Assembly: GCA_030650025.1 (NCBI GenBank)
Contig: JAUSEN010000007.1
Span: forward strand, 9,472 to 73,471
Origin: Candidatus Magasanikiibacteriota bacterium
Lineage (GTDB): Bacteria; Patescibacteriota; Patescibacteriia; Magasanikbacterales; GWA2-37-8
Direction of reading: 5' to 3'
Length of the DNA: 64,000 nt
In this document: positions 1 to 24,274 of the stretch, one piece after another
How positions within the stretch are numbered: position 1 is the stretch's first letter
How the letters are laid out: every line of letters begins with the position of its first letter
The notes under the pieces: model-generated
Seen by the model: only the letters and a program-made list of their open reading frames with translations
Databases searched by the model: none
What the model was told of the DNA's origin: nothing
Made by a program: the position numbers and the translations under genes

Positions 1-120
1 GGCCTGCCCGCAATGCTTCGCATAGCGATGCAGGCGGGACAATTTGGATAGAAGTAGTGCCGCTCGAGCTCGTGGTGAAGGCAGTGGAATAATTTTAGTA
101 TTTTGTAGGCGATAAAAACA

Positions 121-152
121 AAAACCCTGTACCAGAACGGTACAGGGTTTTT
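121..152. terminator. Rho-independent-type hairpin AAAACCCTGTACC-agaac-GGTACAGGGTTTT; it sits just downstream of the stop of the minus-strand oxygenase gene and could act in both directions
   Basis: Perfect 13-bp inverted repeat with a 5-nt loop, flanked by A-run and T-run. Confidence 0.6.
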
Positions 153-249
153 GGAATGTGCGGACGTTTAAGTGTAGTCCGCCGCACACCCCTCCTTCAT
201 TACTAAACTAAGCTATTTTGTTCCTCCTTTTTTTGCAAGCCGCTCGGAG

Positions 250-1302
250 CTAGTCCTTGAAGCCGATCGCCTCGAGCTCCAGGTTGGACATCTCCCCGGC
301 CAGGATCCGGGGGTAGAGCCGAAGGATCTGGCGGCGCACGGCCGGCGGGTGAGCCCGCAGGAAGTGGCCATGGACCTGGAGGAAGCGGTCGCTGGCCACG
401 TGCACGAACACCGTGGAGCTGGAGCGCACCTTCACCTGGGAGCGGTCGTAGCCGCGCTGCGCGCGCACCTCCTTGAGCGCCGCGAGCATCTCGGGCAGGG
501 CCACCACCTCGTGGAAGCCGGCCCGCAGGTACCCGCCACTCTGCCACTCGAGCTGCTTGCCCACCTGGAACAGGAGGCAGCCCGGCGGCACCCGCACTAC
601 CAGCGGCTGCCAGTCGCGCAGCCAGATGCGCAGGCCCGGGTAGCTCGCCGCCCCGTGGATCGTACCCCAGTTGAAGTCGTAGTGGAAGGCGTTGAAGATC
701 TGGCCGAGCGTGACGTTGTCGAGCACCACTCCGTTCGGAGCCAGCAGGTGCGGGGCGTACCGGAAGTGCTTGGTGAAGGTGTTCGGCGGCAGGTTGTAGG
801 CCAAGGCCAGCATCTCGGCGATGGTCTCCACGCTCGCGAGCATCTGCGCGCCCCACCGGTCCATGTTCCTCTCCCAGCGGCCTTCGAACCCGGCGGGCAC
901 CACGTCCGGGGCATTGAGCGCCGGGAACTTGGTGTGCGCGGGGCGCGGTCCGACGCGCCGCATGAAGTGATAGCGGTCGTCCTCGTGGCCGAGCGGCGGG
1001 ATGTGGGGCCACAACTCCAGCGGCAGGTTGGCGATCAGGGCCCGGTGGTCGCGCGGCTGTTCCCGGGTCGAGATGCCCACCTGCCAGTGGTGCTCCGGGC
1101 GTCCATCCCGCTGCAACACTTCCCGCGGCTGGCGGAAGTACTCATCGAGCATGCGGCGATATTCCAGCTGGAAGTTCGATTCGACGCGGGGGTCGCGTAC
1201 GATGACCACCGACGTCGCGGCCAGCGAGTATGCCAGGCGGCGGCAATCATCCAGCGACTTGCCTCTTTCGATGTACCTTGCCAGATCGATGGTTTCGATC
1301 AT
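250..1302 (-). CDS. 2-oxoglutarate/Fe(II)-dependent oxygenase, isopenicillin-N-synthase-like / ACC-oxidase-like family
   Basis: ATG at 1302 (MIETIDLARYIE...) is preceded by GGAGA. The N-terminus looks like a DIOX_N domain. The C-terminus carries H-x-D ... H and an R-x-S-like motif (HYDFNWGTIH ... VPPGCLLFQVGKQLEWQSGGYLRAGFHEVV). GC content is far above the rest of the window. The ORF-track start at 1401 runs into AT-rich sequence and is unlikely to be the true start. Confidence 0.55.
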   Translation of the reverse strand: MIETIDLARYIERGKSLDDCRRLAYSLAATSVVIVRDPRVESNFQLEYRRMLDEYFRQPREVLQRDGRPEHHWQVGISTREQPRDHRALIANLPLELWPHIPPLGHEDDRYHFMRRVGPRPAHTKFPALNAPDVVPAGFEGRWERNMDRWGAQMLASVETIAEMLALAYNLPPNTFTKHFRYAPHLLAPNGVVLDNVTLGQIFNAFHYDFNWGTIHGAASYPGLRIWLRDWQPLVVRVPPGCLLFQVGKQLEWQSGGYLRAGFHEVVALPEMLAALKEVRAQRGYDRSQVKVRSSSTVFVHVASDRFLQVHGHFLRAHPPAVRRQILRLYPRILAGEMSNLELEAIGFKD

Positions 1303-1440
1303 GACGTGTCTCCTTTCGGTCGGCGCAGTTTTTGCGCCTTTGATAACCACCCTAACAAAGAGATGGAGAGATGTAAAGGACAGGTTGTAAATAAAAAACA
1401 CCCTGACAAAAATGTCGAGGTGTTTCCGTTTCGGAAGCGC

Positions 1441-2280
1441 TTATAGCTGAATGACTACCACCCGATCTCGCCCCGCGAGGTCGGTTTTTATTTCGGTTTG
1501 CGCGGTAGGCAGATATTTTTTTATGAGCGCGGTCAGGGCGGAGGATTGTGAGGGGTCGATTTCGAGAAAAATAAAAATTTTTGGTTTTAAATCGATTATT
1601 ATATTTTGTATTTGTTTGAGTAGCTGTTCGTAGAGTTCTAGGCCAGTCGCTCCACTTACGAGCGCTAGCCGTGGTTCGTGTTGAATCGATTTTTCTTCGG
1701 CAAATTGTTTACTGGTGAGATAGGGCAGGTTGGCGGTAATAATAATATTTTTATTTAAAAAAATATTATTATTATGTTTTAAAACCGGTTCCAGTAAATT
1801 ACCTTGTAAAAAATTTATCCCAACATTGTGGGCGCGGGCATTTTTGGCGGCCACGCGCAAGGCGCGGCGCGAGATATCGGTGGCGAAGATTGTTAAGGGG
1901 GTGTGTTTCGCAATCGCAATCGGGATACATCCGGAGCCGGTGCCAACATCCACGAGGAGAGTAGGTTGTAGGGAGTGGGGAGTAGTAGCGAATGATTGAA
2001 GCACCATTTCGACGGTGAGTTCCGTTTCCGGGCGGGGGATTAAGACGTGTTTATTTACAAAAAAATTCAGTCCAAAGAATTCTTTATGGCGAGTAATGTA
2101 AGCGAGGGGGACGCCGCGGTGGCGTTGCCAGGAATAAAAGCGCCAGCGGAAATATTGCCACAGCGAGAGTTTGTACTCGTGGTGAGCATATAAAAACTCA
2201 CGCGGTTTTTGAATGACGTGAGCTAAGAGCAGGTCAGTATCGGCGCCCCGCAGCCAAAATTTAATGGAGCGTCGGAGCAT
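1441..2280 (-). CDS. prmC: Release-factor glutamine N5-methyltransferase PrmC/HemK
   Basis: SAM-binding motif DVGTGSGCIPIAIA and an NPPY-type motif (ANLPY). It lies directly downstream of prfA, the classic prfA-prmC arrangement. Confidence 0.85.
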   Translation of the reverse strand: MLRRSIKFWLRGADTDLLLAHVIQKPREFLYAHHEYKLSLWQYFRWRFYSWQRHRGVPLAYITRHKEFFGLNFFVNKHVLIPRPETELTVEMVLQSFATTPHSLQPTLLVDVGTGSGCIPIAIAKHTPLTIFATDISRRALRVAAKNARAHNVGINFLQGNLLEPVLKHNNNIFLNKNIIITANLPYLTSKQFAEEKSIQHEPRLALVSGATGLELYEQLLKQIQNIIIDLKPKIFIFLEIDPSQSSALTALIKKYLPTAQTEIKTDLAGRDRVVVIQL

Positions 2281-2968
2281 TTTTTTCTAAAATTAAAACC
2301 CAATCTTGGGGGTCAGAGCTCTCTTTTTTACCAGCATTCTTTACGTCTATGCCTAACCAACCACTGCGGAGCCTATGCCTGATAGTATCAAGGTCAGAGA
2401 GCGGTATTTCTTCCCATTCCGGTTGGTAAGCTGTCTCGGAAGAGGTGAGGTCAGTCGTAGCAGGTAAGCGTAAATTTTTATAAATTTTAAATGATCGAGT
2501 GCTACCCTGGCGTAGGCTTGGGGGAAGGCTGGTGACGTTAAAGCCATTTTTTAGCTTAGCGGCCAGCGCTGTAGGATTATCAGTTCGGACATTGGCTTCG
2601 GCGGCGTAGCACCCTTGTTCAGCGGCCCAGCGTAGCCGCTCCGTAGTTATTTTATTGGAATAGGCCTCTCCGCGGAGCTCGGGAATGGTAAAGTTGTCTG
2701 TTAGCAGGGCGATGCGCAGACCACTTCTGTCTTGGATACGCAAGCTACCGCCAGCCACAATAGCTCCGCCATCTTTAAGCGCAAAAAATTTAACTCCGCT
2801 TTTTTCATCGCTATGCAGTCGACGTTTGGCTAAGCGCTGGGCTTGCGAATCGGGGTGATGGCGGTCGGGGTAAAACATACGTTCCGAGAGCATCAGAAAA
2901 TTAAGTTTATCGGCCTCTGATTCCAAGAGCTCTGGTTCTGGTGGCTCGCGGCGTTCAATTTCACGCAT
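2261..2968 (-). CDS. Hypothetical protein, possibly a GNAT-type acetyltransferase; start taken at MREIERR
   Basis: Long ORF overlapping the prmC start by about 20 nt. C-terminal GCYAAEANVRTDNPTALAAKLKNGFNV resembles the GNAT acetyl-CoA motif. The ATG lies in the recurrent TCAAATCATATG leader context, so it is preferred over the upstream TTG of the ORF track. Coordinates here may be off by 1. Confidence 0.4.
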   Translation of the reverse strand: MREIERREPPEPELLESEADKLNFLMLSERMFYPDRHHPDSQAQRLAKRRLHSDEKSGVKFFALKDGGAIVAGGSLRIQDRSGLRIALLTDNFTIPELRGEAYSNKITTERLRWAAEQGCYAAEANVRTDNPTALAAKLKNGFNVTSLPPSLRQGSTRSFKIYKNLRLPATTDLTSSETAYQPEWEEIPLSDLDTIRHRLRSGWLGIDVKNAGKKESSDPQDWVLILEKNAPTLH

Positions 2969-3098
2969 ATGATTTGACAAAATTATGCGATTCAACAGAA
3001 TCGTGTCGGGCAGTGCCTGCCTGCCCTGCCTACCGGACAGGCAGGCGGTAGGCAGGTCCTTTGAAGCCCGACCACGACCTTTGAAGCGCGATTTAAAA
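2969..3098 (-). promoter_or_regulatory. Copy of the recurrent structured 5' element: two GCTTCAAAGG boxes, GC-rich hairpins, then CACGATTCTGTTGAATCG ... GTCAAATCATATG
   Basis: Read on the minus strand: CGCGCTTCAAAGGTCG...GGGCTTCAAAGGACC...hairpin CTGCCTACCG/CGGTAGGCAG...CCCGACACGATTCTGTTGAATCGCATAATTTTGTCAAATCATATG. It is near-identical in layout to the copy upstream of tpiA. Confidence 0.5.
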
Positions 3099-3101
3099 TT
3101 G

Positions 3102-4160
3102 TTAAGCGTCTTGTTGCTCGTGTTCGGCGTTTTTGAGAGCCGTGATAATCGGCTCTAGATCGCCGTCCATAATGGTAGCGATATTATTCCAATTTTGGTG
3201 AATGCGGTGGTCGGTAATGCGATCCTGCGGGAAGTTGTAAGTGCGGATTTTTTCACTGCGGTCGCCCGTGCCGATTTGCGCGCGGCGTTTTTCAGTAATT
3301 TCTTTCATTTTTTTTTCTTGTTCTAAGGCGTAGAGGCGGGCGCGCATTACGGACATGGCTCTTTCGCGGTTGGCAAGCTGAGAACGTTCATCTTGGCACT
3401 GAACAATTAAACCGGTGGGAATAAAAACGATGCGAACAGCGGAGTAGGTAGTGTTAACGCTTTGCCCGCCTTTGCCACCGGCGGTCATAGTATCAATACG
3501 CAAGTCTTTGGGGTCAATTTTAAATTCGGTCTCTTCTATTTCGGGCATCACGGCAACAGTCACGGTCGAGGTGTGCACGCGGCCGGCTTTTTCGGTCTCG
3601 GGCACGCGTTGGACGCGGTGCACGCCCATTTCGTATTTTAAGTTTTTATAAACATCTTTGCCCTTGATAGAAAAAACAACTTCTTTAAACCCGCCGAGGC
3701 CAATTTGGTTAGAGTCAATAAAATTGGTTTTCCATTTTTTGCTTTCCGCGTATTTGGAATACAGGCGGAAGAGTTCGGCGGCGAACAGCGTGGATTCGTC
3801 GCCGCCGACGCCGGCGCGGATTTCCATAATGACATCTTTTTTATCGAGCGGGTCTTCTGGCCGCGTGAGTTCGGCAATCCCCGCGGCTAAATTTTTAATT
3901 TTTTCTTTTAATTCAAAGCTTTCGGCTTCGGCCAGATCGTGAATTTCAGAGTCAGTTTCTTTGGACATCATTAATTCGGTTTCGGCAAGACTGTTCTCGA
4001 AGGCCGCTAGTTCTTTAATTGGTTCCGCCACTGCTTTTAAATCGCTATATTCGCTAGAAACTGTTTTTAATTTTTGAGAATTACCAATAATAGCCGGATT
4101 TTGCAAATCGGTCTCCAGTTTTTGGTATTTAGCAAGAATATCGGAAAATTTTTTAAGCAT
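3102..4160 (-). CDS. prfA: Peptide chain release factor 1
   Basis: GGQ motif region ([35 protein letters not shown]) and the RF1-type tripeptide region (RVPETE, PxT class) are present. A conserved RF1 C-terminal block is present, and the gene sits upstream of prmC. Confidence 0.85.
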
Positions 4161-4292
4161 AAGTTATTAGGTACGAATCCGCCACAGGCGGATTGTTAAC
4201 CGACACGAAATTTCTTCGCCTTCGGCTCGTAAATTTCGGTCGTTAACAAAAAAACAGACTACAAATAGTATAGTCTGTTTTAAATAATTTGG

Positions 4293-4652
4293 CTACGCGC
4301 CAGTTTCGACAACAGCAGTAACAGGCTCGGCTTCGCTAACAGTTTTGGCGGCTTTTTTATCTGCCGCGGCGGCTTTTTTTTCGGCTGCTTTTTTGGCAGT
4401 GACAACCGCTTTTTTTACTTTCTTACCTTTACGCACGGCCGCGACCGCGGTTTTTTTGGCGGCGCGCTCGATAAATTTCTCGACGCGGCGAGCGGTATCG
4501 ACAAATTTTTGTTTGCCAGTATAAAAAGGGTGGCATTGATTGCAGAGTTCAACGCGGATTTCTTTAAGAGTAGAGCCCGTGGTAAAAGTATTGCCGCAGG
4601 CGCACGCAACTTTGGTATCAGTATTATATTCGGGGTGAATGTCTGGTTTCAT
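4293..4652 (-). CDS. rpmE: 50S ribosomal protein L31 with an approximately 50-aa Lys/Ala-rich C-terminal extension
   Basis: [10 protein letters not shown]...CACGNTF...[10 protein letters not shown] is the L31 Zn-ribbon signature. The ATG at 4652 sits in the CAAATCATATG context, and the ORF-track start further upstream is not supported. The tail is [38 protein letters not shown]. Confidence 0.8.
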
Positions 4653-4705
4653 ATGATTTGGCGAAATCACGTCGCGCAACGTCCTTTGAAGCGCGACGCA
4701 CAGGT
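4653..4705 (-). promoter_or_regulatory. Short copy of the recurrent 5' element upstream of rpmE
   Basis: Minus strand reads GCGTCGCGCTTCAAAGGACGTTGCGCGACGTGATTTCGCCAAATCATATG. Confidence 0.5.
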
Positions 4706-4799
4706 AAATTATTGAGTAGAGTTTAGCACGAGCGTTAAAAAATGTCAACGCCGCTATTGACAGCTTGGTGTTTTTGCTTTATACTAAGCCTACTTAATT

Positions 4800-4964
4800 A
4801 ATCTCTCACCCGCCTTCGTCCCAATAAAATTGGGACTAAGGCGGGCAAGTCCGCTCTATAAAGCTGGTTTGCCCGCCCTATATTTCCTCCCTCATGATCA
4901 TTCAAGAGGGCTGGGCGGGGAGGCTACCCACGCCATAGCGGGGTTATAAAAGGAAAAATAATGT
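4800..4964 (+). promoter_or_regulatory. Structured 5' leader upstream of rpsB, a candidate S2 autoregulatory leader
   Basis: Perfect hairpin CCCGCCTTCGTCCCA-ataaaat-TGGGACTAAGGCGGG. A second GC-rich pairing is GCCCGCCC...GGGCGGGG. The region lies directly upstream of the rpsB ATG at 4965 and sits between divergent rpmE and rpsB. Confidence 0.35.
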
Positions 4965-5798
4965 ATGACAAAAATTCCAAGCATTCTGGAAATGCTTAAG
5001 GCCGGGGCGCACTTTGGGCACCAACGCAGCCGCTGGCACCCCAAAATGGCTCAATTTATTTTTGGCATCAGAAACGGGGTTCATATTATTGACCTCGAAA
5101 AAACTGCCGTGGAGTTAACTAAAGCGCTCGAGTACATCAAAACCTTAGCCAGCCAGGGCAAGGTTATTTTATTTGTGGGCACCAAGCGCCAAGCGCGCCA
5201 AGCCGTGCAAAAAACAGCCGAAGCGTGCGGCATGCCCTATGTTACGGAACGCTGGATTGGCGGCCTCTTAACTAATTTTGACGAATTTAAGCGCCGTTTG
5301 AAAAAGTTCCGCCAAATTGAGGACATGATCGCGACCGGCGAGATTGAAAAATACACCAAGAAAGAGCAAACCGTAATGAAGAAGCAATTTGAGAAGATGA
5401 AAAAATATTTGAGCGGTTTAAAAAATCTCAATGAGTTGCCGGACGCGATGTATGTGACGGATATTCGCGTGGAGAAAACCGCGGTGACCGAAGCGAACAA
5501 AGTGAACGTGCCGATGGTCGCGACTTGCGACACTAACGTCAACCCGGAAAAAGTCTTATACCCCATTCCTTGCAATGATGACGCGGTACACGCCATTGAA
5601 ATGATGACAGCTTTGATCGGGCAAGCGATAACCGAAGGCAAAGAAGAATATGCTATGCGCGCGCCTCTCCCTCCGGCGACGCCGAAGGCAGTTGCTATGC
5701 CGACAGATGGCGGAGCGCGACCAACCCTGAAGTCAGCTCCGGCCAGTACTGCTCCCAAGAAAGAACGCCGAGTGATTAAAACTCAAGAGGTGGTGTAG
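4965..5798 (+). CDS. rpsB: 30S ribosomal protein S2
   Basis: HFGHQRSRWHPKMAQFIFG.RNGVHIIDLEKT and later blocks are typical S2. It is immediately upstream of tsf. Confidence 0.9.
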   Translation: MTKIPSILEMLKAGAHFGHQRSRWHPKMAQFIFGIRNGVHIIDLEKTAVELTKALEYIKTLASQGKVILFVGTKRQARQAVQKTAEACGMPYVTERWIGGLLTNFDEFKRRLKKFRQIEDMIATGEIEKYTKKEQTVMKKQFEKMKKYLSGLKNLNELPDAMYVTDIRVEKTAVTEANKVNVPMVATCDTNVNPEKVLYPIPCNDDAVHAIEMMTALIGQAITEGKEEYAMRAPLPPATPKAVAMPTDGGARPTLKSAPASTAPKKERRVIKTQEVV

Positions 5799-5805
5799 GA
5801 TTTTT

Positions 5806-5925
5806 AGCTGTCATTTCGAACCCCGCAGAGCGGGGTGAGAAATCTCTGTCCAAATCGCGAAACGGACAGAGATCCCTCGGTCGCCTCAGGCGACCTCGGG
5901 ATGACAACAAAAACAATCAGATATC
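5806..5925 (+). promoter_or_regulatory. Multi-hairpin structured element in the rpsB-tsf intergenic region, possibly an attenuator or processing site
   Basis: Nested palindromes: CCCCGCAGAGCGGGG, CTCTGTCC-aaatcgcgaaac-GGACAGAG and GGTCGCCTCAGGCGACC, enclosed by GTCAT...ATGAC. There is no U-tract. Confidence 0.35.
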
Positions 5926-5965
5926 TCAACAACAATTTTAAGTTCGATTTTAACTCTTCAAATAT

Positions 5966-6841
5966 ATGCCAATAAGTTCGGGGGACATCATGAAATTGCG
6001 CGCCCAGACTGGCGCGGGCATGATGGATTGCAAAAACGCTTTAGAAGAAGCCGGCGGCGACATGGACAAGGCGGGCGAGATCCTGCGCAAGAAGGGGATT
6101 GTGAAAGCCGCCAAGCGCGCGGATAAAATCGCGGCCGAAGGGTTGATTGTAATTGCAAAATCACCAGATTTAAAAGCCGCGGTGCTTGTCGAAGTAAATT
6201 CGGAAACAGATTTTGTGGGCGCTAGCCCGGATTTTAAAGCTTTGGCCGAAGCCATTGCCGAGGCCGCTTTAGAGAACAAAGCCGAGAGTGTTGAGGCGGC
6301 TCTAGGCGCTAAATTAGCTAGCGGTAAAACTGTGAGCGAAGCCATGAGCGAGATGAGTTTAAAAGTAGGAGAGAAGATTGGCGTGCGCCGAGCGGTGTTG
6401 GTGACCGCTAGCTCCGGAATAGTGGCTTCGTATATTCACGGCACTAAAATCGGCGTTTTAGTAGAGTTAGAAGGCGGCGCGGCTGATTTTGGAGCCGATG
6501 TTGCCATGCACGTCGCGGCGAGCAACCCTAAATATTTAAATCGTGAAGGGGCGGACCAGACTGATATTAACAAAGAAAAAGAAATTTACGCCGAGCAGTT
6601 GCGCGCGCAAAAGAAGCCGGAAAATATTATTGAGAATATCGTGAAAGGCAAGATAGATAAATATTTTGGCGAAGTCTGTTTGCTGGAACAGCCGTTTATT
6701 AAAGATGAAGAGACCACGGTCGGCAAACTCGCGGAAAAAAACAGCGCCAAAATTATACGTTTTATACGGATGGAACTGGGTGAGGGCATTGAGAAGAAGC
6801 AGACGGATTTTGCCGCCGAAGTTAAGGCGCAGTTGAAATAA
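5966..6841 (+). CDS. tsf: Elongation factor Ts
   Basis: N-terminal ...LRAQTGAGMMDCKNALEEAGGDMDKAGEILRKKG is the EF-Ts UBA-like signature. Gene order is rpsB-tsf. Confidence 0.9.
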   Translation: MPISSGDIMKLRAQTGAGMMDCKNALEEAGGDMDKAGEILRKKGIVKAAKRADKIAAEGLIVIAKSPDLKAAVLVEVNSETDFVGASPDFKALAEAIAEAALENKAESVEAALGAKLASGKTVSEAMSEMSLKVGEKIGVRRAVLVTASSGIVASYIHGTKIGVLVELEGGAADFGADVAMHVAASNPKYLNREGADQTDINKEKEIYAEQLRAQKKPENIIENIVKGKIDKYFGEVCLLEQPFIKDEETTVGKLAEKNSAKIIRFIRMELGEGIEKKQTDFAAEVKAQLK

Positions 6842-6932
6842 AGCTCAAGATAAGGCTTAGTTGACAGGTTTAGTAGCTGTGGTAAGGTAATATTTAGAGT
6901 GATTTATTAAATTAATTTAATAATTCAAATAT

Positions 6933-7244
6933 ATGGGAGAATTTGATAAATTTGGCAATAGAATATTACAAGAGCCAGGCGCAGAGCCGGGGCATGTTTA
7001 TAGCGTTGATTTAGGGAGGCCAAAGGAGCCAAAATTGCGATTTGATCCGGCTAATGTTAGTATTTATTTATACACTTTTTCTGATATGGTTCTCCGCGGC
7101 CGGCGTCTGCTTGATAAAGCGGATATAGAACGATTTATTACAGAAATGAAAGCGAAATACGATGGCGTTGATGAGGAGGCTTTGCGAGCCGAAGTGAAGA
7201 GAATGGCGGAGGCGCATGGTAATGAATTGAGCCAAGCCGCTTAA
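6933..7244 (+). CDS. Hypothetical protein (103 aa)
   Basis: Clean ORF followed by a strong terminator. No recognisable motif. Confidence 0.4.
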   Translation: MGEFDKFGNRILQEPGAEPGHVYSVDLGRPKEPKLRFDPANVSIYLYTFSDMVLRGRRLLDKADIERFITEMKAKYDGVDEEALRAEVKRMAEAHGNELSQAA

Positions 7245-7257
7245 GTAGTAAAACAAA

Positions 7258-7297
7258 CCCCCGCCCCGAGCGAAGTCGAGGGGCGGGGTTTTTTTAT
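7258..7297 (+). terminator. Rho-independent terminator
   Basis: CCCCGCCCC-gagcgaagtcga-GGGGCGGGG followed by TTTTTTTATTTTT. Confidence 0.8.
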
Positions 7298-7383
7298 TTT
7301 TGATTTCTTGGTATACTAATAATGAGTCGCCAGCGCGGATGAAATAATTTTTTAATGTTAAAATGTTAATAAGTTAATTTGTT

Positions 7384-8418
7384 ATGTCAATTAAGATTGC
7401 GATAAACGGATTTGGTAGGATCGGCCGGCAGGCCTTTAAGGTGGCTTTGGAACATAAAAAAATTCAGGTGCTCGCGATTAACGATTTAGCCGACCCCAAG
7501 ACTCTGGCGCATTTATTAAAATACGACACGGCCTATGGCCAGTACCCGCGCGCGGTTTCTTTTGACGAGAAAAATATTATTGTCGCTGGCCAGAAATTCC
7601 CGGTATTGAATGAAAAAGATCCGGCGCTATTACCATGGAAGAAATTAAAGATTGATGTGGTCCTAGAGAATACGGGTCGCTTTACTAAGAAAGAAGACGC
7701 GGAGAAGCATATTCAAGCGGGCGCGAAAAAAGTTATTATCAGCGCCCCGGCCAAGCCCTCCTCATCGGCGGGCGGGGTGGGCGTCCCGACTTATGTACTC
7801 GGCGTCAATGGTAATAAGATTCAAAAAGAAACGGCCAAGATAGTGAATAACGCTTCTTGCACCACTAACTGCATCGCGCCAGTCATGGCCGTGCTCGAGG
7901 ATGCTTTTGGCATTGAGAAGGCGATGATGACCACGATTCACGCTTATACGGCCGAGCAGAATTTGCAGGACGCGCCGCCGCCCGGCCTTAAGTCCGGTGA
8001 TTTACGGCGCGCGCGAGCGGCTGGTTTTAACATTGTCCCGACCTCGACAGGCGCGGCCAAGGCGGTCGCCGAAGCGATCCCCAGCCTTAAGGGAATTTTT
8101 GACGGCGTGGCTTTTCGGGTGCCAATTTTAACCGGTTCGCTTTCCGATATCACAGTGGTTTTAAAAAAACAAGTTACTAAAGATGAGGTGAACGCGGCGC
8201 TTATTAAAGCCGTAACTTTGCCGCGCTTCAAGGGTATATTAAGGGTAACCAGCGAGCCTTTGGTATCGTCCGATTTTATTGGCGACAGCGCTTCCAGCAT
8301 TGTGGATTTAAGTTTAACCAATGTGGTTGGCGGTAATTTGGTTAAGGTAGTGGCCTGGTATGACAACGAAGCGGGGTACGCGCACCGGCTGGTGGAGCTC
8401 GCGGAAATGTGGGGTTAA
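7384..8418 (+). CDS. gap: Glyceraldehyde-3-phosphate dehydrogenase
   Basis: NGFGRIGR NAD-binding motif and the active-site region ASCTTNCIAP. Confidence 0.9.
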   Translation: MSIKIAINGFGRIGRQAFKVALEHKKIQVLAINDLADPKTLAHLLKYDTAYGQYPRAVSFDEKNIIVAGQKFPVLNEKDPALLPWKKLKIDVVLENTGRFTKKEDAEKHIQAGAKKVIISAPAKPSSSAGGVGVPTYVLGVNGNKIQKETAKIVNNASCTTNCIAPVMAVLEDAFGIEKAMMTTIHAYTAEQNLQDAPPPGLKSGDLRRARAAGFNIVPTSTGAAKAVAEAIPSLKGIFDGVAFRVPILTGSLSDITVVLKKQVTKDEVNAALIKAVTLPRFKGILRVTSEPLVSSDFIGDSASSIVDLSLTNVVGGNLVKVVAWYDNEAGYAHRLVELAEMWG

Positions 8419-8563
8419 AGCTATTTTTACTTATCCACAGGCAGGTTTAGCGTTTTTGGTGTATAATATGAAAGTCAAAAATGTGAGAAAAATTGCCAAT
8501 AAAAAAGAGAATTAATTTTTTGCATATTTATTTTATTAATTATTATTAGTAACTAAAGAAAGT

Positions 8564-8986
8564 ATGAATAATAAGGCAGTAGCAGCGATAGCAGGGGCGC
8601 TGATCTTAGTAGCAGTGGTGTTAGTATGGGGGGCGGGAGAAATAAAATCGTTGCATACATTGGCCACAGTGCCAGAAGGCGAATATAGCATGATTTATTT
8701 AACGAACGGCGAGACTTATGTTGGGAAAGTAAAACCTAAGGCAAGTTATTTGGAGGTAACAGAGGGAAATTTATTAGCAATTAGTAATGTTGTTAAGGGC
8801 GGGAAAGCGTTTCTTGATTATCGCCTGACATCTTTTAACAAAGGAGTGCTCTGGAAAAGCGAACGGTTAGTTATTAATTTTGATAGTGTCGTATTTTACG
8901 CGCCGCTCTTAAAGAGCAGTGAAGTAGTGAAAGCCTTGGAAAGGGCGCAGAAAGCAGGAGTGGTAGAAGAGACAGCGACGGAGTAA
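8564..8986 (+). CDS. Hypothetical membrane-anchored protein
   Basis: N-terminal hydrophobic helix AVAAIAGALILVAVVLVWGA. No other motif. Confidence 0.4.
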   Translation: MNNKAVAAIAGALILVAVVLVWGAGEIKSLHTLATVPEGEYSMIYLTNGETYVGKVKPKASYLEVTEGNLLAISNVVKGGKAFLDYRLTSFNKGVLWKSERLVINFDSVVFYAPLLKSSEVVKALERAQKAGVVEETATE

Positions 8987-9180
8987 GCCAGCTTATTAAT
9001 TTATTAAATATAATAAAATAATTAAAGGGGGTTATAAATCGAAAGTAGTTTTAAAAAATCAAAAACATTATTATCCCTACATGTAAGTGCAATTTTATTA
9101 GGTCGATAAAATTGTATAATAAAGGTAAGGTCAATAATAAATAAATTTAATAATCATTTAATCTTAATTCATAAAAAACT

Positions 9181-10290
9181 ATGAAGACAAACTTCTTCAA
9201 AGTCTACACCAAATCCGCAGGAATACTTGCGACTTTGGGGGCACTAGCTTTGAGCGCCGGCTCGGCTATGGCTGTGTCATCAATTGGTACTGACATTACC
9301 ACTGGCGGCATCATCACTGCCACGGGCGCTGGCCGCTTTGGCACAGGTTCGAATGTAACCGGCACTTTAGCAGTCACGGGCGTCTCCACCTTAACCGGTG
9401 AAGTCAACGCCGGGGCCGCTATCACTGCCACGGGCGCGGGTCGCTTTGGCACCGGTTCGAATGTTACCGGCACTTTAGCAGTTACGGGCGCGGCTACCTT
9501 GGATAGCGCTGTCATTACCAACAATGATACAGTGGGCGGCATCTTGAGCGTCACGGGCGCTGGTCGCTTTGGCACAGCCTCAAATGTAACCGGCACTTTA
9601 GCAGTTACTGGCGCGGCTACTTTGGATAGCGCCATTGTCACCAACAATACGGGAATCGGTGGCATCTTGAGCGTCACAGGCGCTGGTCGCTTTGGCACAG
9701 CCTCAAATGTTACCGGCACTTTAGCAGTTACTGGCGCGGCTACTTTGGATAGCGCTGTCATTACCAACAACGATACAGTTGGCGGCGTTTTGAGCGTCAC
9801 GGGAGCTGGCCGCTTTGGCACAGCCTCAAATGTAACCGGTACCCTAACAGTCACGGGCGTCTCCACCTTAACCGGTGAAGTCAATGCCGGAGCCGCTATC
9901 ACTGCCACGGGCGCGGGCCGCTTTGGCACAGGTACAAATGTAACCGGTACTTTAGCAGTTACGGGCAATACCACCTTGGTAACCACTACCTATAGTGGTG
10001 GCGGGTGGACCGGTGCGGCCATTAGTGCGGTTTTATCTGGCACGGCTTCCCTCTCTTTCACTGAAACGATTACTGATATCTGCCAAACTCTCACCATAGC
10101 TGTTACCGGAGCGCGCGATGGCGATGTGGTGGCGTTAGGTGTGCCGACGGCGGCGGCGGCGACTGTTTCCACCACCTTCTTCGGTTGGGTATCGGCAAAT
10201 GACACTGTGTCCGTCAAACGTTGTAACGTAGCGGCCACCACCGCGCCGGGCGCTGTAACAGTCCGGGCGGTTGTCTGGAAGTTCGATTAA
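9181..10290 (+). CDS. Secreted Thr/Gly-rich protein with about seven tandem 40-aa repeats, possibly beta-helical and surface-exposed
   Basis: Signal peptide MKTNFFKVYTKSAGILATLGALALSAGSAMA. The repeated unit is ITATGAGRFGTGSNVTGTLAVTGxxTLxxxVxxxxxxGG. The antisense ORF 9204..9986 is an artefact of the repeat. Confidence 0.55.
   Translation: MKTNFFKVYTKSAGILATLGALALSAGSAMAVSSIGTDITTGGIITATGAGRFGTGSNVTGTLAVTGVSTLTGEVNAGAAITATGAGRFGTGSNVTGTLAVTGAATLDSAVITNNDTVGGILSVTGAGRFGTASNVTGTLAVTGAATLDSAIVTNNTGIGGILSVTGAGRFGTASNVTGTLAVTGAATLDSAVITNNDTVGGVLSVTGAGRFGTASNVTGTLTVTGVSTLTGEVNAGAAITATGAGRFGTGTNVTGTLAVTGNTTLVTTTYSGGGWTGAAISAVLSGTASLSFTETITDICQTLTIAVTGARDGDVVALGVPTAAAATVSTTFFGWVSANDTVSVKRCNVAATTAPGAVTVRAVVWKFD
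9290..9960 (+). repeat. Intragenic tandem DNA repeats of about 120 bp (about 6 copies)
   Basis: Recurrent ggcgctggccgctttggcacaggttcgaatgtaaccggcactttagcagtcacgggcg with small variations. Confidence 0.7.
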
Positions 10291-10461
10291 TTTAATTTAG
10301 CAATGAGAGTGTGCCTTTCTTGAGTTAACTTGGTTTGGTGGGGAGTTTTAAAAGACTCCCCGCTTCACCAAAGGATTCAAAAAGACAGCCAGTCCTCTAA
10401 AAAGGTCGGGCACGAGGCATGGCGCACCTCACTAACCCTACTTAAAATATAGAGATAAACT

Positions 10462-11904
10462 ATGAATAAGAAATTACTTGGACTTCTTGGAACAATAGGG
10501 GCGTTGGTGTTTCCGGTGCTGGTCTTGGCCGCTTTTAACACGGTCACCTTTATTCAAAATACTGACATACCGCTTAGTGATGGGAACGGCAGTATAATCT
10601 TGATCGTGACGAGCACCTCTAACATAGCCAGCACGACCATTGGCACCGGCTCATTGGATATAGGCCTGGAAAGCGGTTCGGAGATTACTCTGATGACCGC
10701 CAGCAAAAGAGTGCTGTTGGTTAGTCCCGCGATCGCGACTTTTACTTGTGGAGCAACGACCTCTACTGTAACTCTTACATCGGCTTCAACTCAAAATGTT
10801 ACCATAACATTGGGAGACTACTGTATACGCAGTTTTTCCGCCACTTCATTTTTTCAAGCGGCGGTTCCAACGATACCACTCTCTTGGAGCGGATCGTCGA
10901 GTGTATACTATGTCACCACTACTTTAGCTAGCACCGGCGCGACTGTAAGTTCGGCGACAACTTCGGCGCAAACTTATAATGTGACCGCGGGCTTAAATTG
11001 TGGCTTTACGTATGTCGTGTATGTACATGGTCAAACTGGTGCTTTAAGTTCCAATTTAGTTTCGGCGAGTGTGCAAACTTACCTTTGCCCGGGTCAGTCA
11101 GTGTTGCCCCAGGCGTCTTCTGGCGGTGGCGGCGCGTCACCGGCTTTGGCCACACCGACTCCGGTAACCACCACGACTGTTCCGGTTCCAACTACCACCA
11201 CTACTTTAACTCCCACTTCTCCAATACCACCTGCTCCATTGGCTACTCCAGCGGTAACTACTCCGTTTGGCACGAAGCCCGCGTCTTGCCCGGCAATTTT
11301 GCCTGGCGACATGATAAAGGTGGTAGGGAAAGCGCCAATCTATGTTGTGAACAAGGCCTTCCAGACGCTTTACTTCCCCAGCGGCAATGAGTTTAAGAGC
11401 TGGAATATGGACGACAAGTATGGCGGTTACACCAGTATCTCGCAAACTTGTTTTGATGACCTAAAATTACCAGTGATGTTCCCGCTGGCGGTAAACTTCC
11501 GCCCGGGTAGTTTTGTGGTAAAGAAGGCCACTTCACCGCAGTTGTATGTTGTCTTACCAGGCAATTCCTTGGCGAAGATAACAGCGAGCGCGGCCAGGGC
11601 TTTATATGGAGCGACTTATCGGCCCGTGGTAGTTTCGAGTCTATTCTGGCCTAGCTATGTCAAGAGTGGCGCTGATATTACGGCCAGCAAACCACACGAA
11701 GGCATGTTGGTCAGTAATGGCGGGAAAAAATGGTATGTGGACGCCGGGCTAGTACTGCGCGAGGTCACAACTTCTGGCATGTCAGCTAACCGCTTCAAGC
11801 AAGCCTTTGTGCACCCAGCGACTGACGCGATGATTTCCGGCTTTACTAAGGGTGGCGTGATAACAGCCTTAGAAGCCAAATTTGCTAGTCGTATTTCGGA
11901 TTAG
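10462..11904 (+). CDS. Secreted Ser/Thr-rich protein with a Pro/Thr linker
   Basis: Signal peptide MNKKLLGLLGTIGALVFPVLVLAAF. Central linker PTPVTTTTVPVPTTTTTLTPTSPIPPAPLATPAVTTP. Confidence 0.5.
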   Translation: MNKKLLGLLGTIGALVFPVLVLAAFNTVTFIQNTDIPLSDGNGSIILIVTSTSNIASTTIGTGSLDIGLESGSEITLMTASKRVLLVSPAIATFTCGATTSTVTLTSASTQNVTITLGDYCIRSFSATSFFQAAVPTIPLSWSGSSSVYYVTTTLASTGATVSSATTSAQTYNVTAGLNCGFTYVVYVHGQTGALSSNLVSASVQTYLCPGQSVLPQASSGGGGASPALATPTPVTTTTVPVPTTTTTLTPTSPIPPAPLATPAVTTPFGTKPASCPAILPGDMIKVVGKAPIYVVNKAFQTLYFPSGNEFKSWNMDDKYGGYTSISQTCFDDLKLPVMFPLAVNFRPGSFVVKKATSPQLYVVLPGNSLAKITASAARALYGATYRPVVVSSLFWPSYVKSGADITASKPHEGMLVSNGGKKWYVDAGLVLREVTTSGMSANRFKQAFVHPATDAMISGFTKGGVITALEAKFASRISD

Positions 11905-11944
11905 CATCTTCGGATTAGTATCTTAAGCATCGTAGTTAATAGCA

Positions 11945-11976
11945 AACACCCGCCTCATCGGCGGGTGTTTTGTTTG
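11945..11976 (+). terminator. Rho-independent terminator
   Basis: ACACCCGCC-tcatc-GGCGGGTGT followed by TTTTGTTT. Confidence 0.8.
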
Positions 11977-12029
11977 CGTAATTTATGGTTTTTTGCTAAA
12001 ATTAAGGCACTTAAGTGTAAATAATATTT

Positions 12030-13412
12030 ATGCGTGATTTAGTTTTGGAAACGACAAAAAAAGTGGGGCAAGAGGTGGTTTTAAAGGGTTGGGTGAACGC
12101 ACGGCGCAATATGGGAAAAATTGTGTTTTTGGATTTGCGCGATCGCTCTGGCATTGTGCAAGTCGTTGGCGTGCCGGCGGAATTGAGCGCCGAGAGCCAA
12201 GAGAGATTAAAAGAAATTCGGCCCGAGTGGGTAGTTGAAATCAGAGGAGTAGTAAATGAGCGCGGGGAGAAGCAAAAAAATCCGGCCATGCCCACGGGTT
12301 TGGTGGAAGTTTTGGCTAAAGAGTTAATTGTGTTAAATACGGCCGAAACGCCGCCGTTTGAGATTGATAAAGACACGAGTGGCATTTCCGAGGAACTGCG
12401 CTTGAAATATCGCTATTTGGATTTGAGAAGTGACAGAATGATTAAAAATTTGGACAGGCGGCATTTGGTAGTGAAATTTATCCGGGATTATTTGTCGGCG
12501 CGCGGTTTTATTGAGGTGGAAACGCCCTTGTTAACCAAAGGCACTCCCGAAGGCGCGCGAGAATTTATCGTGCCCTCGCGCTTGCACGCTGGCAAATTTT
12601 ATGTTTTGCCCCAGTCGCCCCAGCAGTTTAAGCAGTTGTTGATGGTAGCGGGAGTAGAAAAATATTTTCAAATCGCGCGAGCGCTCCGCGATGAGGACCA
12701 GCGAGGCGACCGCCAACCCGAACACACTCAACTAGACATTGAAATGAGTTTTGTGACGCAAGATGATGTTTTAAATTTGGTAGAAGATTTATTCACGGCT
12801 TTAGTGAAAGAAAAATTTCCCAATAAAATTCTGTCGTTAGCTTCGTTCCCGCGCATTTCTTACGATGAGTGCCTTAAAAAATATGGCACCGATAAGCCCG
12901 ATCTCCGCGCCGACAAAAATAACCCACACGAGCTAGCCTTCGCCTGGATCGTTGATTTCCCCATGTTTGAAAAAGATGAGAACGGGAATATTCAGGCTAT
13001 GCACCACCCGTTTTGCGCTCCCCAAGAGCCCGAATTATTGGATTCTGACCCGCTTAAAATGCACGCGGCGCAATATGATTTGGTATTGAATGGTTATGAG
13101 CTGGCTTCGGGCAGTATCCGCATTCATAATAGCGAATTGCAATCCAAAATATTCAAAATTATGGGGCTATCCGCAGAGGAAGCGCAAAATAAATTTGGCC
13201 ATATGCTGGAAGCGTTTACATACGGCGCTCCGCCGCACGGCGGTATTGCTCCCGGCATTGACCGTTTGGTAATGCTTTTAGCCGGAGAGCCAAATATTCG
13301 CGAAGTGATTGCCTTTCCTAAAACCGGGGATGCCAGAGATTTGATGATGAGCGCGCCCTCGGATTTGCCCGAACAGGCGCTTAAAGACGCGCATATTAAG
13401 ATTGTGAAATAA
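12030..13412 (+). CDS. aspS: Aspartate--tRNA ligase, short archaeal/AsnRS-like class IIb type, possibly non-discriminating
   Basis: N-terminal OB fold (GWVNARRNMGKIVFLDLRDRSGIVQVV). Class II motifs FRAE-like and GAPPHGGIAPGIDRLVMLL. At 460 aa it is short compared with bacterial-type AspRS. Confidence 0.75.
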   Translation: MRDLVLETTKKVGQEVVLKGWVNARRNMGKIVFLDLRDRSGIVQVVGVPAELSAESQERLKEIRPEWVVEIRGVVNERGEKQKNPAMPTGLVEVLAKELIVLNTAETPPFEIDKDTSGISEELRLKYRYLDLRSDRMIKNLDRRHLVVKFIRDYLSARGFIEVETPLLTKGTPEGAREFIVPSRLHAGKFYVLPQSPQQFKQLLMVAGVEKYFQIARALRDEDQRGDRQPEHTQLDIEMSFVTQDDVLNLVEDLFTALVKEKFPNKILSLASFPRISYDECLKKYGTDKPDLRADKNNPHELAFAWIVDFPMFEKDENGNIQAMHHPFCAPQEPELLDSDPLKMHAAQYDLVLNGYELASGSIRIHNSELQSKIFKIMGLSAEEAQNKFGHMLEAFTYGAPPHGGIAPGIDRLVMLLAGEPNIREVIAFPKTGDARDLMMSAPSDLPEQALKDAHIKIVK

Positions 13413-13483
13413 ATTTAGTAATGGCGTTGAGTAGGGACAGGGCAATGCCCTGTCCCTACCAGAGATGTTAATAAAATAACAAA

Positions 13484-14176
13484 ATGCCGATAGATTTAAA
13501 ACTGGAAAAATTTGCCGGGCCGCTGGATTTGCTCCTGCAGTTGATTGGCGAGGACAAATTGAATATAACGGACGTGGCGCTAGCGAAAGTAACCGAGCAA
13601 TATCTGGCTTATTTAAATACGCTTGAGCACGAGCGCCCGGACGAACTGGCGGATTTTTTGGTGGTGGCCACGCGCCTGGTGTTTATGAAGTCGCGGGAAT
13701 TATTGCCCGTGTTAACGCCGGATGAAGATGAGGGGATTTCTTTGGCCGAACAGCTGAAAATGTACCAAAAATTTGTAGTGGCGAGCAAAGTAGTCTTGGC
13801 GCTGTGGGAGCGAAAGCTCTTGGCCTATGGCCGGGCAGAGCCGCTATTAAGACCAGCCGCTTTTGTGCTCCCGGCTAACGCGCGAGCGCAAAATTTACGC
13901 GTTGCCATAGGCGAACTGCTTAAGCGGCTGAAGCCAGTGGCGCCCTTGCCCGAGGTGTCGATTGACAAAAGCATAACTTTGCGCGAGCGGATTCAGAAGA
14001 TATTTGATTTTTTACGGCAATGGAAGAAAATTAGTTTCCGCGAATTATTTAAAGGGGCGAAAAATAAAACTGAAATAATCGTGGGTTTTTTGGCATTACT
14101 CGAGTTAATGAAACAAGATAAAATTGCCATTTCGCAACCGCAGGCATTTAGTGATATGGAAATTAAACACGTGTAA
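13484..14176 (+). CDS. scpA: Segregation and condensation protein A
   Basis: N-terminus KLEKFAGPLDLLLQLIGEDKLNITDVALAKVTEQYLAYL is typical ScpA. It is adjacent to scpB. Confidence 0.8.
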   Translation: MPIDLKLEKFAGPLDLLLQLIGEDKLNITDVALAKVTEQYLAYLNTLEHERPDELADFLVVATRLVFMKSRELLPVLTPDEDEGISLAEQLKMYQKFVVASKVVLALWERKLLAYGRAEPLLRPAAFVLPANARAQNLRVAIGELLKRLKPVAPLPEVSIDKSITLRERIQKIFDFLRQWKKISFRELFKGAKNKTEIIVGFLALLELMKQDKIAISQPQAFSDMEIKHV

Positions 14177-14224
14177 ATAGGAAACTAGATTCCCGCTGGC
14201 GCGGGAATGACAGAATAATATTTT

Positions 14225-14797
14225 TTGGTTAATAAAAATATGAATGAATTGGTTAGAAAAATTGAAACGATATTATTTGTGGCGGGGAAGCCGGTGAGTG
14301 TTAAAAAATTGGCCAAAGTTTTAGTGGTCACGGAAGCGGCGATTAGCGCGGCGCTCTTGGAGTTAACAAATAAATATCCCGCCGGGGCGGGGGTGGTGCT
14401 ATTCAACAGCGGCGATGAGTGGCAGTTAGTTTCTAACCCTGAAGAACGGGAATTAGCGGAACAATTTATTAAAGCCGAGGCGAGCGGCGACTTAACCAGG
14501 CCGCAGCTCGAAGCTTTAACCGTAGTGGCGTACTCGGGACCTATTACCAAGCCAGAGTTAGAAGCGATTCGCGGAGTAAACTGCAGCCTGATTTTGCATA
14601 ATTTACTGATACGAGGCTTGGTAGAGGAGCGCGAAGACAGCCTGGAGCTTTTGCCCACTTATGAAGTCACCATGGAATATTTGCGGCATTTGGGGGTAGA
14701 GAGAGTTACGGAATTGCCGGATTACGCTACTCTGCACGCGCATGATTACATAACTAAAGCTTTGGCAGCGGAGCCATCTGCCAGCGTAGTAACATAA
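14225..14797 (+). CDS. scpB: Segregation and condensation protein B
   Basis: ELVRKIETILFVAGKPVSVKKLAKVL is the ScpB winged-helix signature. Confidence 0.8.
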   Translation: MVNKNMNELVRKIETILFVAGKPVSVKKLAKVLVVTEAAISAALLELTNKYPAGAGVVLFNSGDEWQLVSNPEERELAEQFIKAEASGDLTRPQLEALTVVAYSGPITKPELEAIRGVNCSLILHNLLIRGLVEEREDSLELLPTYEVTMEYLRHLGVERVTELPDYATLHAHDYITKALAAEPSASVVT

Positions 14798-14805
14798 TAA
14801 GTAAT

Positions 14806-15834: not shown

Positions 15835-15849
15835 TTTAGCACTAATCGT

Positions 15850-17037: not shown

Positions 17038-17096
17038 TGGTATAATATAGTTGTTATTTATTAATGAACGCCGGTAGCGTTTAATAGGAGGGAAAT

Positions 17097-17975: not shown

Positions 17976-17986
17976 AAATAATGTTA

Positions 17987-18016
17987 AAAGACCCCAGAAT
18001 CTGGGGTCTTTTTTGT
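17987..18016 (+). terminator. Rho-independent terminator
   Basis: AGACCCCAG-aat-CTGGGGTCT followed by TTTTTGTTT. Confidence 0.8.
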
Positions 18017-18084
18017 TTAAATAAATTGTGGTATAATTTAATAAAGTTAGATGGGTATAGGATTCATTTTTGACGCGTAATATT

Positions 18085-19332: not shown

Positions 19333-19369
19333 GTAGCCAGATTCGAGCGGGGGGAAGTTTGTTGTATTT

Positions 19370-20965: not shown

Positions 20966-20967
20966 AT

Positions 20968-23141: not shown

Positions 23142-23191
23142 TAACTACCCCCCAATTTATTTTTGGGGGGAGACTATTATTTGTTTACAAC

Positions 23192-24263: not shown

Positions 24264-24274
24264 AGTTGCGCTTT

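Follow-up and report, generated by a model that had tools for sequence, protein, structure and literature searches.

The window analyzed here, a 64,000-nucleotide stretch of contig JAUSEN010000007.1 (positions 9,472 to 73,471), belongs to a Candidatus Magasanikbacteria genome within the candidate phyla radiation (CPR, or Patescibacteria). Close to its left end, an open reading frame (ORF) on the minus strand encodes a predicted Fe(II)- and 2-oxoglutarate (2OG)-dependent oxygenase whose guanine-plus-cytosine (GC) content sets it apart from the rest of the window. The encoded sequence matches, residue for residue, MDO8625928.1 (Q7K39_00515), a "hypothetical protein" from a 74,945-bp contig of a Candidatus Magasanikbacteria metagenome-assembled genome (MAG). 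Our reading, to which we assign a probability of roughly 77%, is that an intact gene was horizontally acquired into this genome, where it lies between prmC and a convergent gene of the DUF3048 family. The features at this end of the window are as follows.

3..92, plus strand: C-terminus of the DUF3048 gene, 29 codons and TAA, continuing beyond the left end of the window; the translation ends in GGTIWIEVVPLELVVKAVE
119..153, minus strand: strong intrinsic terminator with a 15-bp perfect stem, 5-nt loop, and U-tail (terminator scan, inverted repeat I2, RNA fold)
158..187, minus strand: second hairpin in the 3' untranslated region (GUGCGGCGGAC...GUCCGCAC; RNA fold)
250..1302, minus strand: oxygenase coding sequence, 350 amino acids, ATG at 1302..1300 and TAG at 252..250 (ORF translation)
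1309..1316, minus strand: ribosome-binding site AAAGGAGA, 6 nt upstream of the ATG (read from the sequence)
1320..1336, minus strand: small leader hairpin GGCGCA-AAAAC-UGCGCC, just upstream of the ribosome-binding site (RNA fold of 1303..1440)
1396..1425, minus strand: hairpin and U-run directly past the prmC stop codon (inverted repeat I21, centroid RNA fold, context)
1441..2280, minus strand: prmC, release-factor glutamine methyltransferase, the native right-hand neighbor (Pfam PrmC_N/MTS)
2261..2995, minus strand: GNAT acetyltransferase gene (Pfam)
3102..4160, minus strand: prfA (Pfam)
4293..4748, minus strand: rpmE (Pfam)

Further neighbors in the window include rpsB, tsf, and gap, also identified with Pfam. 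The oxygenase gene has the signals expected of a bacterial gene at both ends. AAGGAG sites like its own precede the oxygenase copies on three other contigs (L002, L003, and L015), and the terminator at 119..153, which lies 97 nt downstream of the oxygenase stop codon, would be placed to serve the convergent DUF3048 gene as well, as a bidirectional element. The hairpin at 1396..1425 is likely the terminator of prmC or its operon, an assignment made from its fold and position since a simple terminator scan did not list it. With a terminator there, the oxygenase would form a separate transcription unit. Within the leader (1395..1303), a promoter scan gave no convincing sigma-70-type match, and an Rfam search for leader or riboswitch RNAs returned nothing above threshold, only terminator-like partial matches. 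The genes around the oxygenase are housekeeping genes. No biosynthetic cluster surrounds it, which leaves the "tailoring" role proposed in the initial annotation unproven.

The compositional anomaly is large and confined to the gene. The oxygenase ORF is 67.6% GC versus 47.5% for window positions 1500..64000, and windows of 1,053 nt taken outside the first 1.5 kb averaged 47.5% (standard deviation [SD], 3.8%), with a maximum of 57.2%. By codon position, the gene has GC1, GC2, and GC3 values of 0.69, 0.42, and 0.917, compared to 0.530 ± 0.047, 0.395 ± 0.061, and 0.509 ± 0.071 (maximum GC3, 0.613) for the other 57 ORFs in the window. This places its GC3 5.8 SD above the 57 host genes, in agreement with the earlier view of a GC-rich outlier. 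Because GC2 is normal, the excess is mainly synonymous rather than a product of amino acid content. Codons ending in A or T are generally avoided in the gene, and TTA and TTG account for 8% of its leucine codons versus 50% in the host. Translational selection was considered as a cause of the high GC3 and was rejected, as the highly expressed host genes rpsB, tsf, and gap have GC3 values of just 0.54 to 0.58.

The initial annotation had extended the GC-rich DNA over the first 1.4 kb, but a two-boundary likelihood fit placed it at 239..1244 (69.0% versus 47.1% GC; log-likelihood gain, 66), from the oxygenase stop codon to about 58 nt short of the start. Positions 1..300 are 50.7% GC, and 1..250, occupied by a native gene and terminators, are about 50%; a block of 61 to 71% follows, and beyond about 1300 values return to 37 to 51%. 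The abrupt drop reported near 1310 is real, with 42.7% GC at 1351..1650, but GC3 already falls within the first 75 or so codons of the gene. In successive groups of 25 codons, GC3 climbs from 0.68 to 0.84, 0.84, and then at least 0.92. A similar dip (0.52 to 0.64) is present in the first 25 codons of the GC-rich copies on contigs L002, L014, L015, and L007, and because it is common to these copies, it represents a generic 5'-end effect rather than a recombination junction. A mosaic structure within the ORF was rejected on this basis. The off-frame ORFs at 203..1012 (minus strand), 349..1446 (plus strand), and 597..914 (minus strand), already flagged as spurious, do exist and are rich in Arg, Ala, Pro, and Gly. 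None matched a Pfam family, and they are expected by-products of GC-rich DNA that is poor in stop codons.

Gene order on both sides of the oxygenase matches that of related genomes that lack it. Two related genomes from Patescibacteria/Magasanikbacteria (L019, GCA_964360825.1; L020, GCA_003488405.1) encode secG, rpmE, prfA, and prmC, then a convergent DUF3048 gene, followed by rplY (L25), ftsW, and gyrB. In both, the junction between prmC and DUF3048 contains no oxygenase, and DUF3048 follows directly or after one small ORF. The small ORF, in L020 (6984..7253), encodes 89 amino acids unrelated to the oxygenase, and extra genes may land at this junction repeatedly. The comparison of empty sites was made by gene order, since the nearest PrmC relatives (57% identity) are too distant for comparison of nucleotides. 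At the left edge of the window, the plus-strand frame at 3..92 ends in GGTIWIEVVPLELVVKAVE, and the DUF3048 proteins of the relatives end in GKIWIEIVPQSGYVSWE and GKIWIVVMNQTGGVTSE. BLASTP aligned GTIWIEVVP in the window with GKIWIEIVP at an equal distance from the C-terminus (7 of 9 identities; pairwise E value, 5e-4). A Pfam search with the 29-amino-acid fragment gave no match, the fragment being too short. Since the left edge is thus the native convergent neighbor of prmC, the oxygenase reads as a one-gene insertion into a conserved rpmE-prfA-prmC/DUF3048 junction. The DUF3048 gene continues past the left end of the window, so the oxygenase need not lie at a contig edge, as the initial annotation had assumed. 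The closest named relatives of the window's PrmC are all from Magasanikbacteria or Patescibacteria, at no more than 57% identity, and by this measure the backbone of the window is a CPR genome without close sequenced relatives.

An independent assembly also contains the insertion. In the Logan assembly of run SRR13727527, a 2,876-nt contig (L001) matches window positions 169..3044 with 0 mismatches and spans the entire oxygenase, its 5' junction, prmC, and the GNAT gene. The contig stops at window position 169, within the hairpin at 158..187 and 81 nt past the oxygenase stop codon. This end could reflect a drop in coverage or a branch in the assembly graph, such as strain variation at the insertion boundary.

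At least six further contigs whose gene content is of the CPR type carry oxygenase homologs. Five loci (L003, L006, L016/L017, L021, and L022) share the order ctpB, era, rplI, pyrG, oxygenase, sugar transferase, S8 peptidase, epimerase, and glycosyltransferases, and this conserved order indicates vertical inheritance in one lineage. The PrmC of that lineage is 50% identical to that of the window, and judged by PrmC and TsaD, the lineage is about as close to the window organism as are named Magasanikbacteria. At L003, L006, L016, L021, and L022, the oxygenase begins 15 to 70 nt past pyrG (CTP synthase) on the same strand, and the two are possibly cotranscribed. The locus then runs on into a cell envelope glycosylation cluster (sugar transferase, epimerase, GT2, GT4, and methyltransferase). 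The pyrG-linked locus does not occur within the window. Other copies lie at unrelated sites, which include the prmC/DUF3048 junction of the window, a site near tsaD and dnaE (L002), the locus in L014 and L015, and L018.

In every low-GC context, the oxygenase is a GC3 outlier. GC3 was 0.57 in L003 (context, 0.44 ± 0.03), 0.46 in L006 (0.35 ± 0.03), 0.38 in L016 (0.30 to 0.37), and 0.74 in L002 (0.51 ± 0.11), and it reached 0.79 in L015 within flanks of 35% GC. The window copy, at 0.92 versus 0.51, is the extreme of this series, and copies in Myxococcales match their surrounding composition. The copy in L014 and L015 retains about 50 to 80 nt of GC-rich 3' flank. In L014 (positions 1..3576; GCA_040384045.1), all three genes are GC-rich (GC3, 0.69 to 0.79) and separated by spacers of about 35% GC, a pattern of several GC-rich ORFs in AT-rich spacer that is unexplained. 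L015 is the orthologous locus of a related genome, with an AT-rich gene downstream.

A database search returned 216 relatives at an E value of ≤0.001. The closest 14, at 49 to 56% identity, are from metagenomic or MAG contigs. Eukaryotic relatives at 38 to 46% identity occur in dictyostelids, Physarum, green, red, and brown algae, chytrids, and Plasmodiophora. Among species-level genomes, relatives were found in Parcubacteria bacterium Gr01-1014_13 (49%), in Myxococcales/Nannocystis MAGs (35 to 36%), and in a Verrucomicrobiaceae MAG (32%). In a neighbor-joining tree with 500 bootstraps, the window protein and a CPR core (P0002 to P0015 and L006) were monophyletic in 493 replicates, the core without the window protein in 474, and the four Myxococcales copies in all 500. 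The window protein is 53% identical to the CPR core and 42% identical to the eukaryotic copies, and the core is internally 71% identical. These relationships place the window protein as a deep, long-branch sister of the CPR clade, although GC-driven amino acid change may exaggerate the branch (combined fraction of Gly, Ala, Arg, and Pro [GARP], 0.33).

Some labels and placements in this set call for comment. The Verrucomicrobiaceae copy (L013, JAIYDP010000463.1, 316..1452) falls among eukaryotic sequences in the tree, which may represent a separate transfer between a eukaryote and a bacterium or a binning artifact. Contigs L002/L005 (CAZMYO010000015.1), L007, and L011 are labeled "uncultured Gammaproteobacteria bacterium (binchicken)," a label that looks like a placeholder or error. 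The TsaD encoded on L002 is closest to proteins of Candidatus taxa and Patescibacteria (65% identity to Parcubacteria Gr01-1014_13).

The protein itself carries the residues expected of a 2OG-dependent oxygenase. In an alignment of 26 relatives, H207, D209, and H264, the HxD...H facial triad for Fe(II), are invariant, and H207-Y-D209 and H264 align with the metal ligands of Protein Data Bank (PDB) entries 3oox and 3on7. The R293-x-S295 pair, corresponding to the site for the C5-carboxylate of 2OG, is conserved in at least 90% of the 26 relatives and invariant in a 15-member clade from prokaryotic contexts, and its spacing from the distal histidine equals that of R286/S288 in thymine-7-hydroxylase (T7H) (PMC4787775). 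The Pfam 2OG-FeII_Oxy family (PF03171) matched the window protein at 15.3 bits against a cutoff of 23 (E value, 0.025), the cutoff being a detection criterion, and an NCBIfam search gave no match. Among the 26 relatives, DIOX_N (PF14226) was detected in 15 and 2OG-FeII_Oxy (E value of ≤0.01) in 12, and a profile of the family found 3oox (CC_0200) in the PDB with an E value of 1.5e-11.

Structure prediction agrees with the motifs. An AlphaFold2 model built on the 26-relative alignment had a pLDDT of 92.5 and a pTM of 0.92, and in it the protein adopts the double-stranded β-helix fold with a two-part DIOX_N/catalytic architecture. Foldseek returned 256 PDB matches at an E value of ≤0.001, and the top 50 were all isopenicillin N synthase (IPNS)/DAOCS-like 2OG oxygenases. 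The best matches were T7H, CC_0200, EFE, GA2ox, HSL1/HIS1, and ANS (TM score, 0.65 to 0.75; 11 to 20% identity), and the alignments with T7H, EFE, ANS, and GA2ox covered about 350 columns. The oxygenase motifs noted in the initial annotation thus hold up despite the subthreshold Pfam score, and its "IPNS/ACC-oxidase-like" description fits at the level of fold and motif. Judged from conserved residues and the predicted structure, assignment to the IPNS/DAOCS-like class of Fe(II)/2OG oxygenases appears secure. Intact and divergent, it falls in an uncharacterized branch of that class.

By analogy with the class, H207, D209, and H264 would hold Fe(II), and R293 and S295 would bind 2OG. O2-dependent decarboxylation of 2OG would then generate a ferryl species able to hydroxylate or otherwise oxidize a small-molecule substrate. 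The enzyme probably acts alone, because no partner gene is conserved over five distinct genomic contexts. Its motifs and model most likely point to a stand-alone enzyme that uses O2 and 2OG to hydroxylate or oxidize a small molecule. Such an enzyme was described as unexpected in a minimal genome, yet the homologs on at least six other CPR-type contigs, vertically inherited in one lineage, argue otherwise. O2-using enzymes have been reported in CPR MAGs, and Magasanikbacteria (class ABY1) have been seen to grow in oxic groundwater incubations (PMC12577380). An oxygenase in a CPR genome is unusual but has precedent.

How the gene reached this junction can be judged against several alternatives. 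The initial annotation left the choice between a recent acquisition from a high-GC donor and a chimeric assembly, in which the fragment of a high-GC organism was falsely joined to or inserted in a CPR contig. The extreme and abrupt change in composition, the position of the gene near the window start, and the end of the Logan contig at 169 in the 3' untranslated region, which leaves the left junction without a second assembly, would all fit a chimera. However, a strict de Bruijn contig joins the oxygenase, its 5' junction, prmC, and the GNAT gene without a mismatch, and composition returns to host levels on both sides, whereas a high-GC join would stay GC-rich to the end. Decisively, the left flank encodes exactly the neighbor expected from synteny, the C-terminus of a convergent DUF3048 protein, so that two false joins would be needed that happened to rebuild the native gene order. 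A GC-rich ORF in low-GC flanks also recurs in unrelated assemblies (L015 and L002). A chimera was rejected on the independent assembly and the synteny at both sides, and we consider it extremely improbable. Direct transfer from a eukaryote or giant virus deserves as little weight. Most named relatives are eukaryotic, some green algal relatives are as GARP-rich as the window protein, and four viral contigs from IMG/VR (L025 to L028), two of them giant-virus MAGs (GVMAG-M-3300022309-7 and GVMAG-M-3300024062-1), carry family members at 34 to 37% identity. Those viral copies are of the eukaryotic type and compositionally native (17 to 43% GC; the two GVMAG genes are 22 to 25% in flanks of 17 to 20%), and for this reason they are not the source of the window gene. 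The window protein instead groups with the prokaryote-context clade in 493 of 500 bootstraps, carries the NWGTIHG and LLFQVGKQLEWQ signatures of that clade rather than the eukaryotic NFLTIHG and LLLQAGKQLEWL, is closer in identity to the CPR core than to the eukaryotic copies (53% versus 42%), and is encoded by a gene with a bacterial ribosome-binding site and terminator.

More weight, if still little, belongs to the idea that the transferred gene is a decaying passenger, nonfunctional or heading for loss. Of 90 near-invariant positions in the family, 15 differ in the window protein, compared to 0 to 3 in its clade relatives, no partner gene is conserved, and no convincing promoter was found by the scan. 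Against decay, the 350-codon ORF is intact, the metal- and 2OG-binding residues are all kept, the model is confident and fully folded, and the ribosome-binding site and terminator are good; a streamlined genome would also be unlikely to hold 1 kb of dead DNA for long. Somewhat less improbable, though still doubtful, is a long-resident native gene whose GC-rich synonymous sites are kept by selection or a gene-specific bias rather than by recent transfer. Every CPR copy is a GC3 outlier. That holds even for the pyrG-linked copies passed on vertically, in which protein identity is down to about 70% and synonymous sites should therefore be saturated; slow amelioration is no full explanation of the residual excess in these old copies. 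The stop codon and preferred codons also fit the host, and the GC-rich block is limited to the ORF. Yet two relatives lack the gene at this junction, its GC3 of 0.92 is far past the excess that remains in the old copies (+0.05 to +0.13), the host's ribosomal protein, EF-Ts, and GAPDH genes show no comparable bias, and the protein diverges deeply, on a long branch, as sister to the CPR clade and is not close to the pyrG-linked copies.

Several observations weigh against horizontal acquisition of an intact gene, or at least against its simplest form. A search for the donor lineage, as proposed in the initial annotation, named none: the closest of 5.8 billion proteins is only 56% identical. Codon usage, also proposed as a check, gave a divided answer, because GC3 is an outlier (0.917 versus 0.509), but a score of host synonymous-codon preference is not (z = −1.3), as the host itself favors CGC, GCC/GCG, GGC, and GTG. 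The borders of the GC-rich block nearly coincide with those of the ORF, which is odd, since raw transfer of high-GC DNA should bring GC-rich flanks as well. TGA predominates as the stop codon in typical high-GC bacteria, and the TAG stop of the oxygenase suits the host (TAA, 17; TAG, 12; TGA, 2); TAG is also used by the copies in L002, L003, L014, and L015. No mobility gene (integrase or transposase), adjacent tRNA, notable flanking direct repeat, target site duplication, or conserved cassette end was found at the oxygenase. A search for cassette ends or attC-like sites shared among copies was likewise negative, as no relationship was seen between the flanking sequences of the copies in the window, L002, L003, and L018, and the only common flanks, in L014 and L015, represent one locus in two related genomes. 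A plasmid search with the oxygenase gave no match. The left junction (1..168) is backed by the deposited assembly and synteny only, not the Logan contig, and the relatives with empty sites are distant, with PrmC identities of 52 to 53%. Finally, the 15 deviations at near-invariant positions mean that function may be altered or relaxed.

Even so, composition, native flanks, and the empty site in relatives support recent horizontal acquisition from a high-GC donor. With a GC3 of 0.92, the gene shows no detectable amelioration toward the host value of 0.51, from which we infer a recent high-GC source; until recently, the gene would have resided in an unsampled genome of roughly 65 to 70% GC or more. 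The window copy differs from other CPR copies in both locus and position in the tree, and the subfamily would have been acquired by CPR bacteria at least twice, from GC-rich sources. The pyrG-linked copies would represent an older acquisition, vertically inherited and nearly ameliorated, the scattered copies with GC3 values of 0.74 to 0.79 would lie at other sites, and the window copy would be the most recent. Repeated entry into CPR genomes from GC-rich sources is the simplest reading of the series.

This gene thus represents a clean, well-bounded, and apparently recent single-gene acquisition in a group for which few hosts and gene-flow partners are known. Since there has been essentially no amelioration, a near-identical copy may survive in a high-GC genome from the same sample, and finding it could name the donor, possibly the host. 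CPR bacteria are often said to depend on other microbes as hosts (PMC12577380). A broader proposal, which we regard as unlikely, is that CPR lineages repeatedly capture this subfamily from a hidden high-GC reservoir, plausibly the organisms they live on, and then retain it for long periods. If so, the unameliorated window copy would be a clue to the organism on which this Magasanikbacterium lives or recently lived, and the enzyme would supply an O2-dependent step that minimal cells lack, with the T7H-like fold and the linkage to pyrG hinting at salvage of nucleobases or pyrimidines. More generally, an uncharacterized 2OG oxygenase family has members in CPR bacteria, Myxococcales, giant viruses, and a wide range of algae and protists. 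That very small genomes keep such a gene suggests that they benefit from an O2-dependent reaction. In annotation, a compositional break near the start of a window need not signal misassembly, and synteny on two sides can settle the matter without reads.

Other parts of the window and of the compared loci also showed unusual features. The second most GC-rich gene in the window (9181..10290, plus strand) is 56% GC, with an unusually high GC2 (0.63) instead of GC3, and its sole domain match is a weak ACT domain. Its GC excess probably reflects low-complexity amino acid composition, not foreign origin. Two adjacent genes deviate in the opposite direction: one at 34417..35400 (plus strand) of the DKNYY family (35.6% GC; GC3, 0.25) and its neighbor at 35713..36477 (plus strand), which has no Pfam match (30.8% GC; GC3, 0.29). 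Together they may form another islet of foreign DNA, this one of low-GC origin. In the operon next to the oxygenase, the GNAT gene (2261..2995, minus strand) lies between prfA and prmC, which overlap directly in L019 and L020; it is a second lineage-specific insertion, with host-like composition (49% GC; GC3, 0.46). The gyrB gene of L019 (11112..12825) encodes about 1,120 amino acids with an intein (Pfam Intein_splicing), unlike gyrB of L020.

Among characterized or deposited proteins, the best sequence-level relative in the PDB is CC_0200 of Caulobacter crescentus (3oox, COG3491/PcbC-like), whose profile match covers residues 121 to 350. It is also joint best in structure (TM score, 0.75/0.85), with the same architecture and the same metal and 2OG motifs. 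Identity is 20%, its length is 312 amino acids versus about 350 in the window's family, and that family has invariant motifs of its own, APHLxAPxG and NWGTIHG. As a structural genomics deposit described as a "putative 2OG-Fe(II) oxygenase family protein," it transfers no function. Ethylene-forming enzyme (EFE), gibberellin 2-oxidase (GA2ox), anthocyanidin synthase (ANS), and HSL1/HIS1, which are DOXC/IPNS-like 2OG oxygenases of plants and microbes, are alike in fold class and length (TM score, 0.65 to 0.70) but are 12 to 17% identical and act on unrelated substrates, with substrate pockets that are not conserved. DDB_G0267528 of Dictyostelium discoideum (Q55GT3) is a full-length homolog (43% identity; E value, ~1e-77) that shares the invariant residues; it is uncharacterized, lies on a separate eukaryotic branch of the family, and was not mentioned in the searchable literature. 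General literature searches on CPR bacteria, 2OG oxygenases, and horizontal gene transfer found no directly relevant paper.

The top Foldseek match, T7H of Neurospora crassa (5c3p to 5c3s; E value, 3e-20; TM score, 0.73; 15% identity), has the same HxD...H and RxS arrangement, and its substrate is bound by Arg190, Tyr217, Phe292, and Asn87/Glu122/Asn294 (PMC4787775). In a register set by the motifs, T7H F292, the aromatic residue six positions past the arginine, corresponds to F299 of the window protein. The position of Tyr217 is occupied by F210, after the aspartate (Leu in most family members), and register counting places H301 at Asn294 and reveals no evident equivalent of Arg190 in the window protein. 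RxSxxxF is general to this fold class. A T7H assignment was not made, since identity is 15% and the shared residues are not diagnostic. A further link is the neighboring pyrimidine metabolism gene pyrG in one CPR lineage, and that linkage is a single evolutionary event. For these reasons, T7H is a lead rather than an assignment. Compared with classical atypical transferred genes and genomic islets, the window insertion differs in being a single ORF with host-like flanks, lacking an integrase, tRNA target, direct repeats, conserved ends, or a known plasmid. It shares with them an atypical GC content and GC3, a syntenic site that is empty in relatives, and a patchy phylogenetic distribution.

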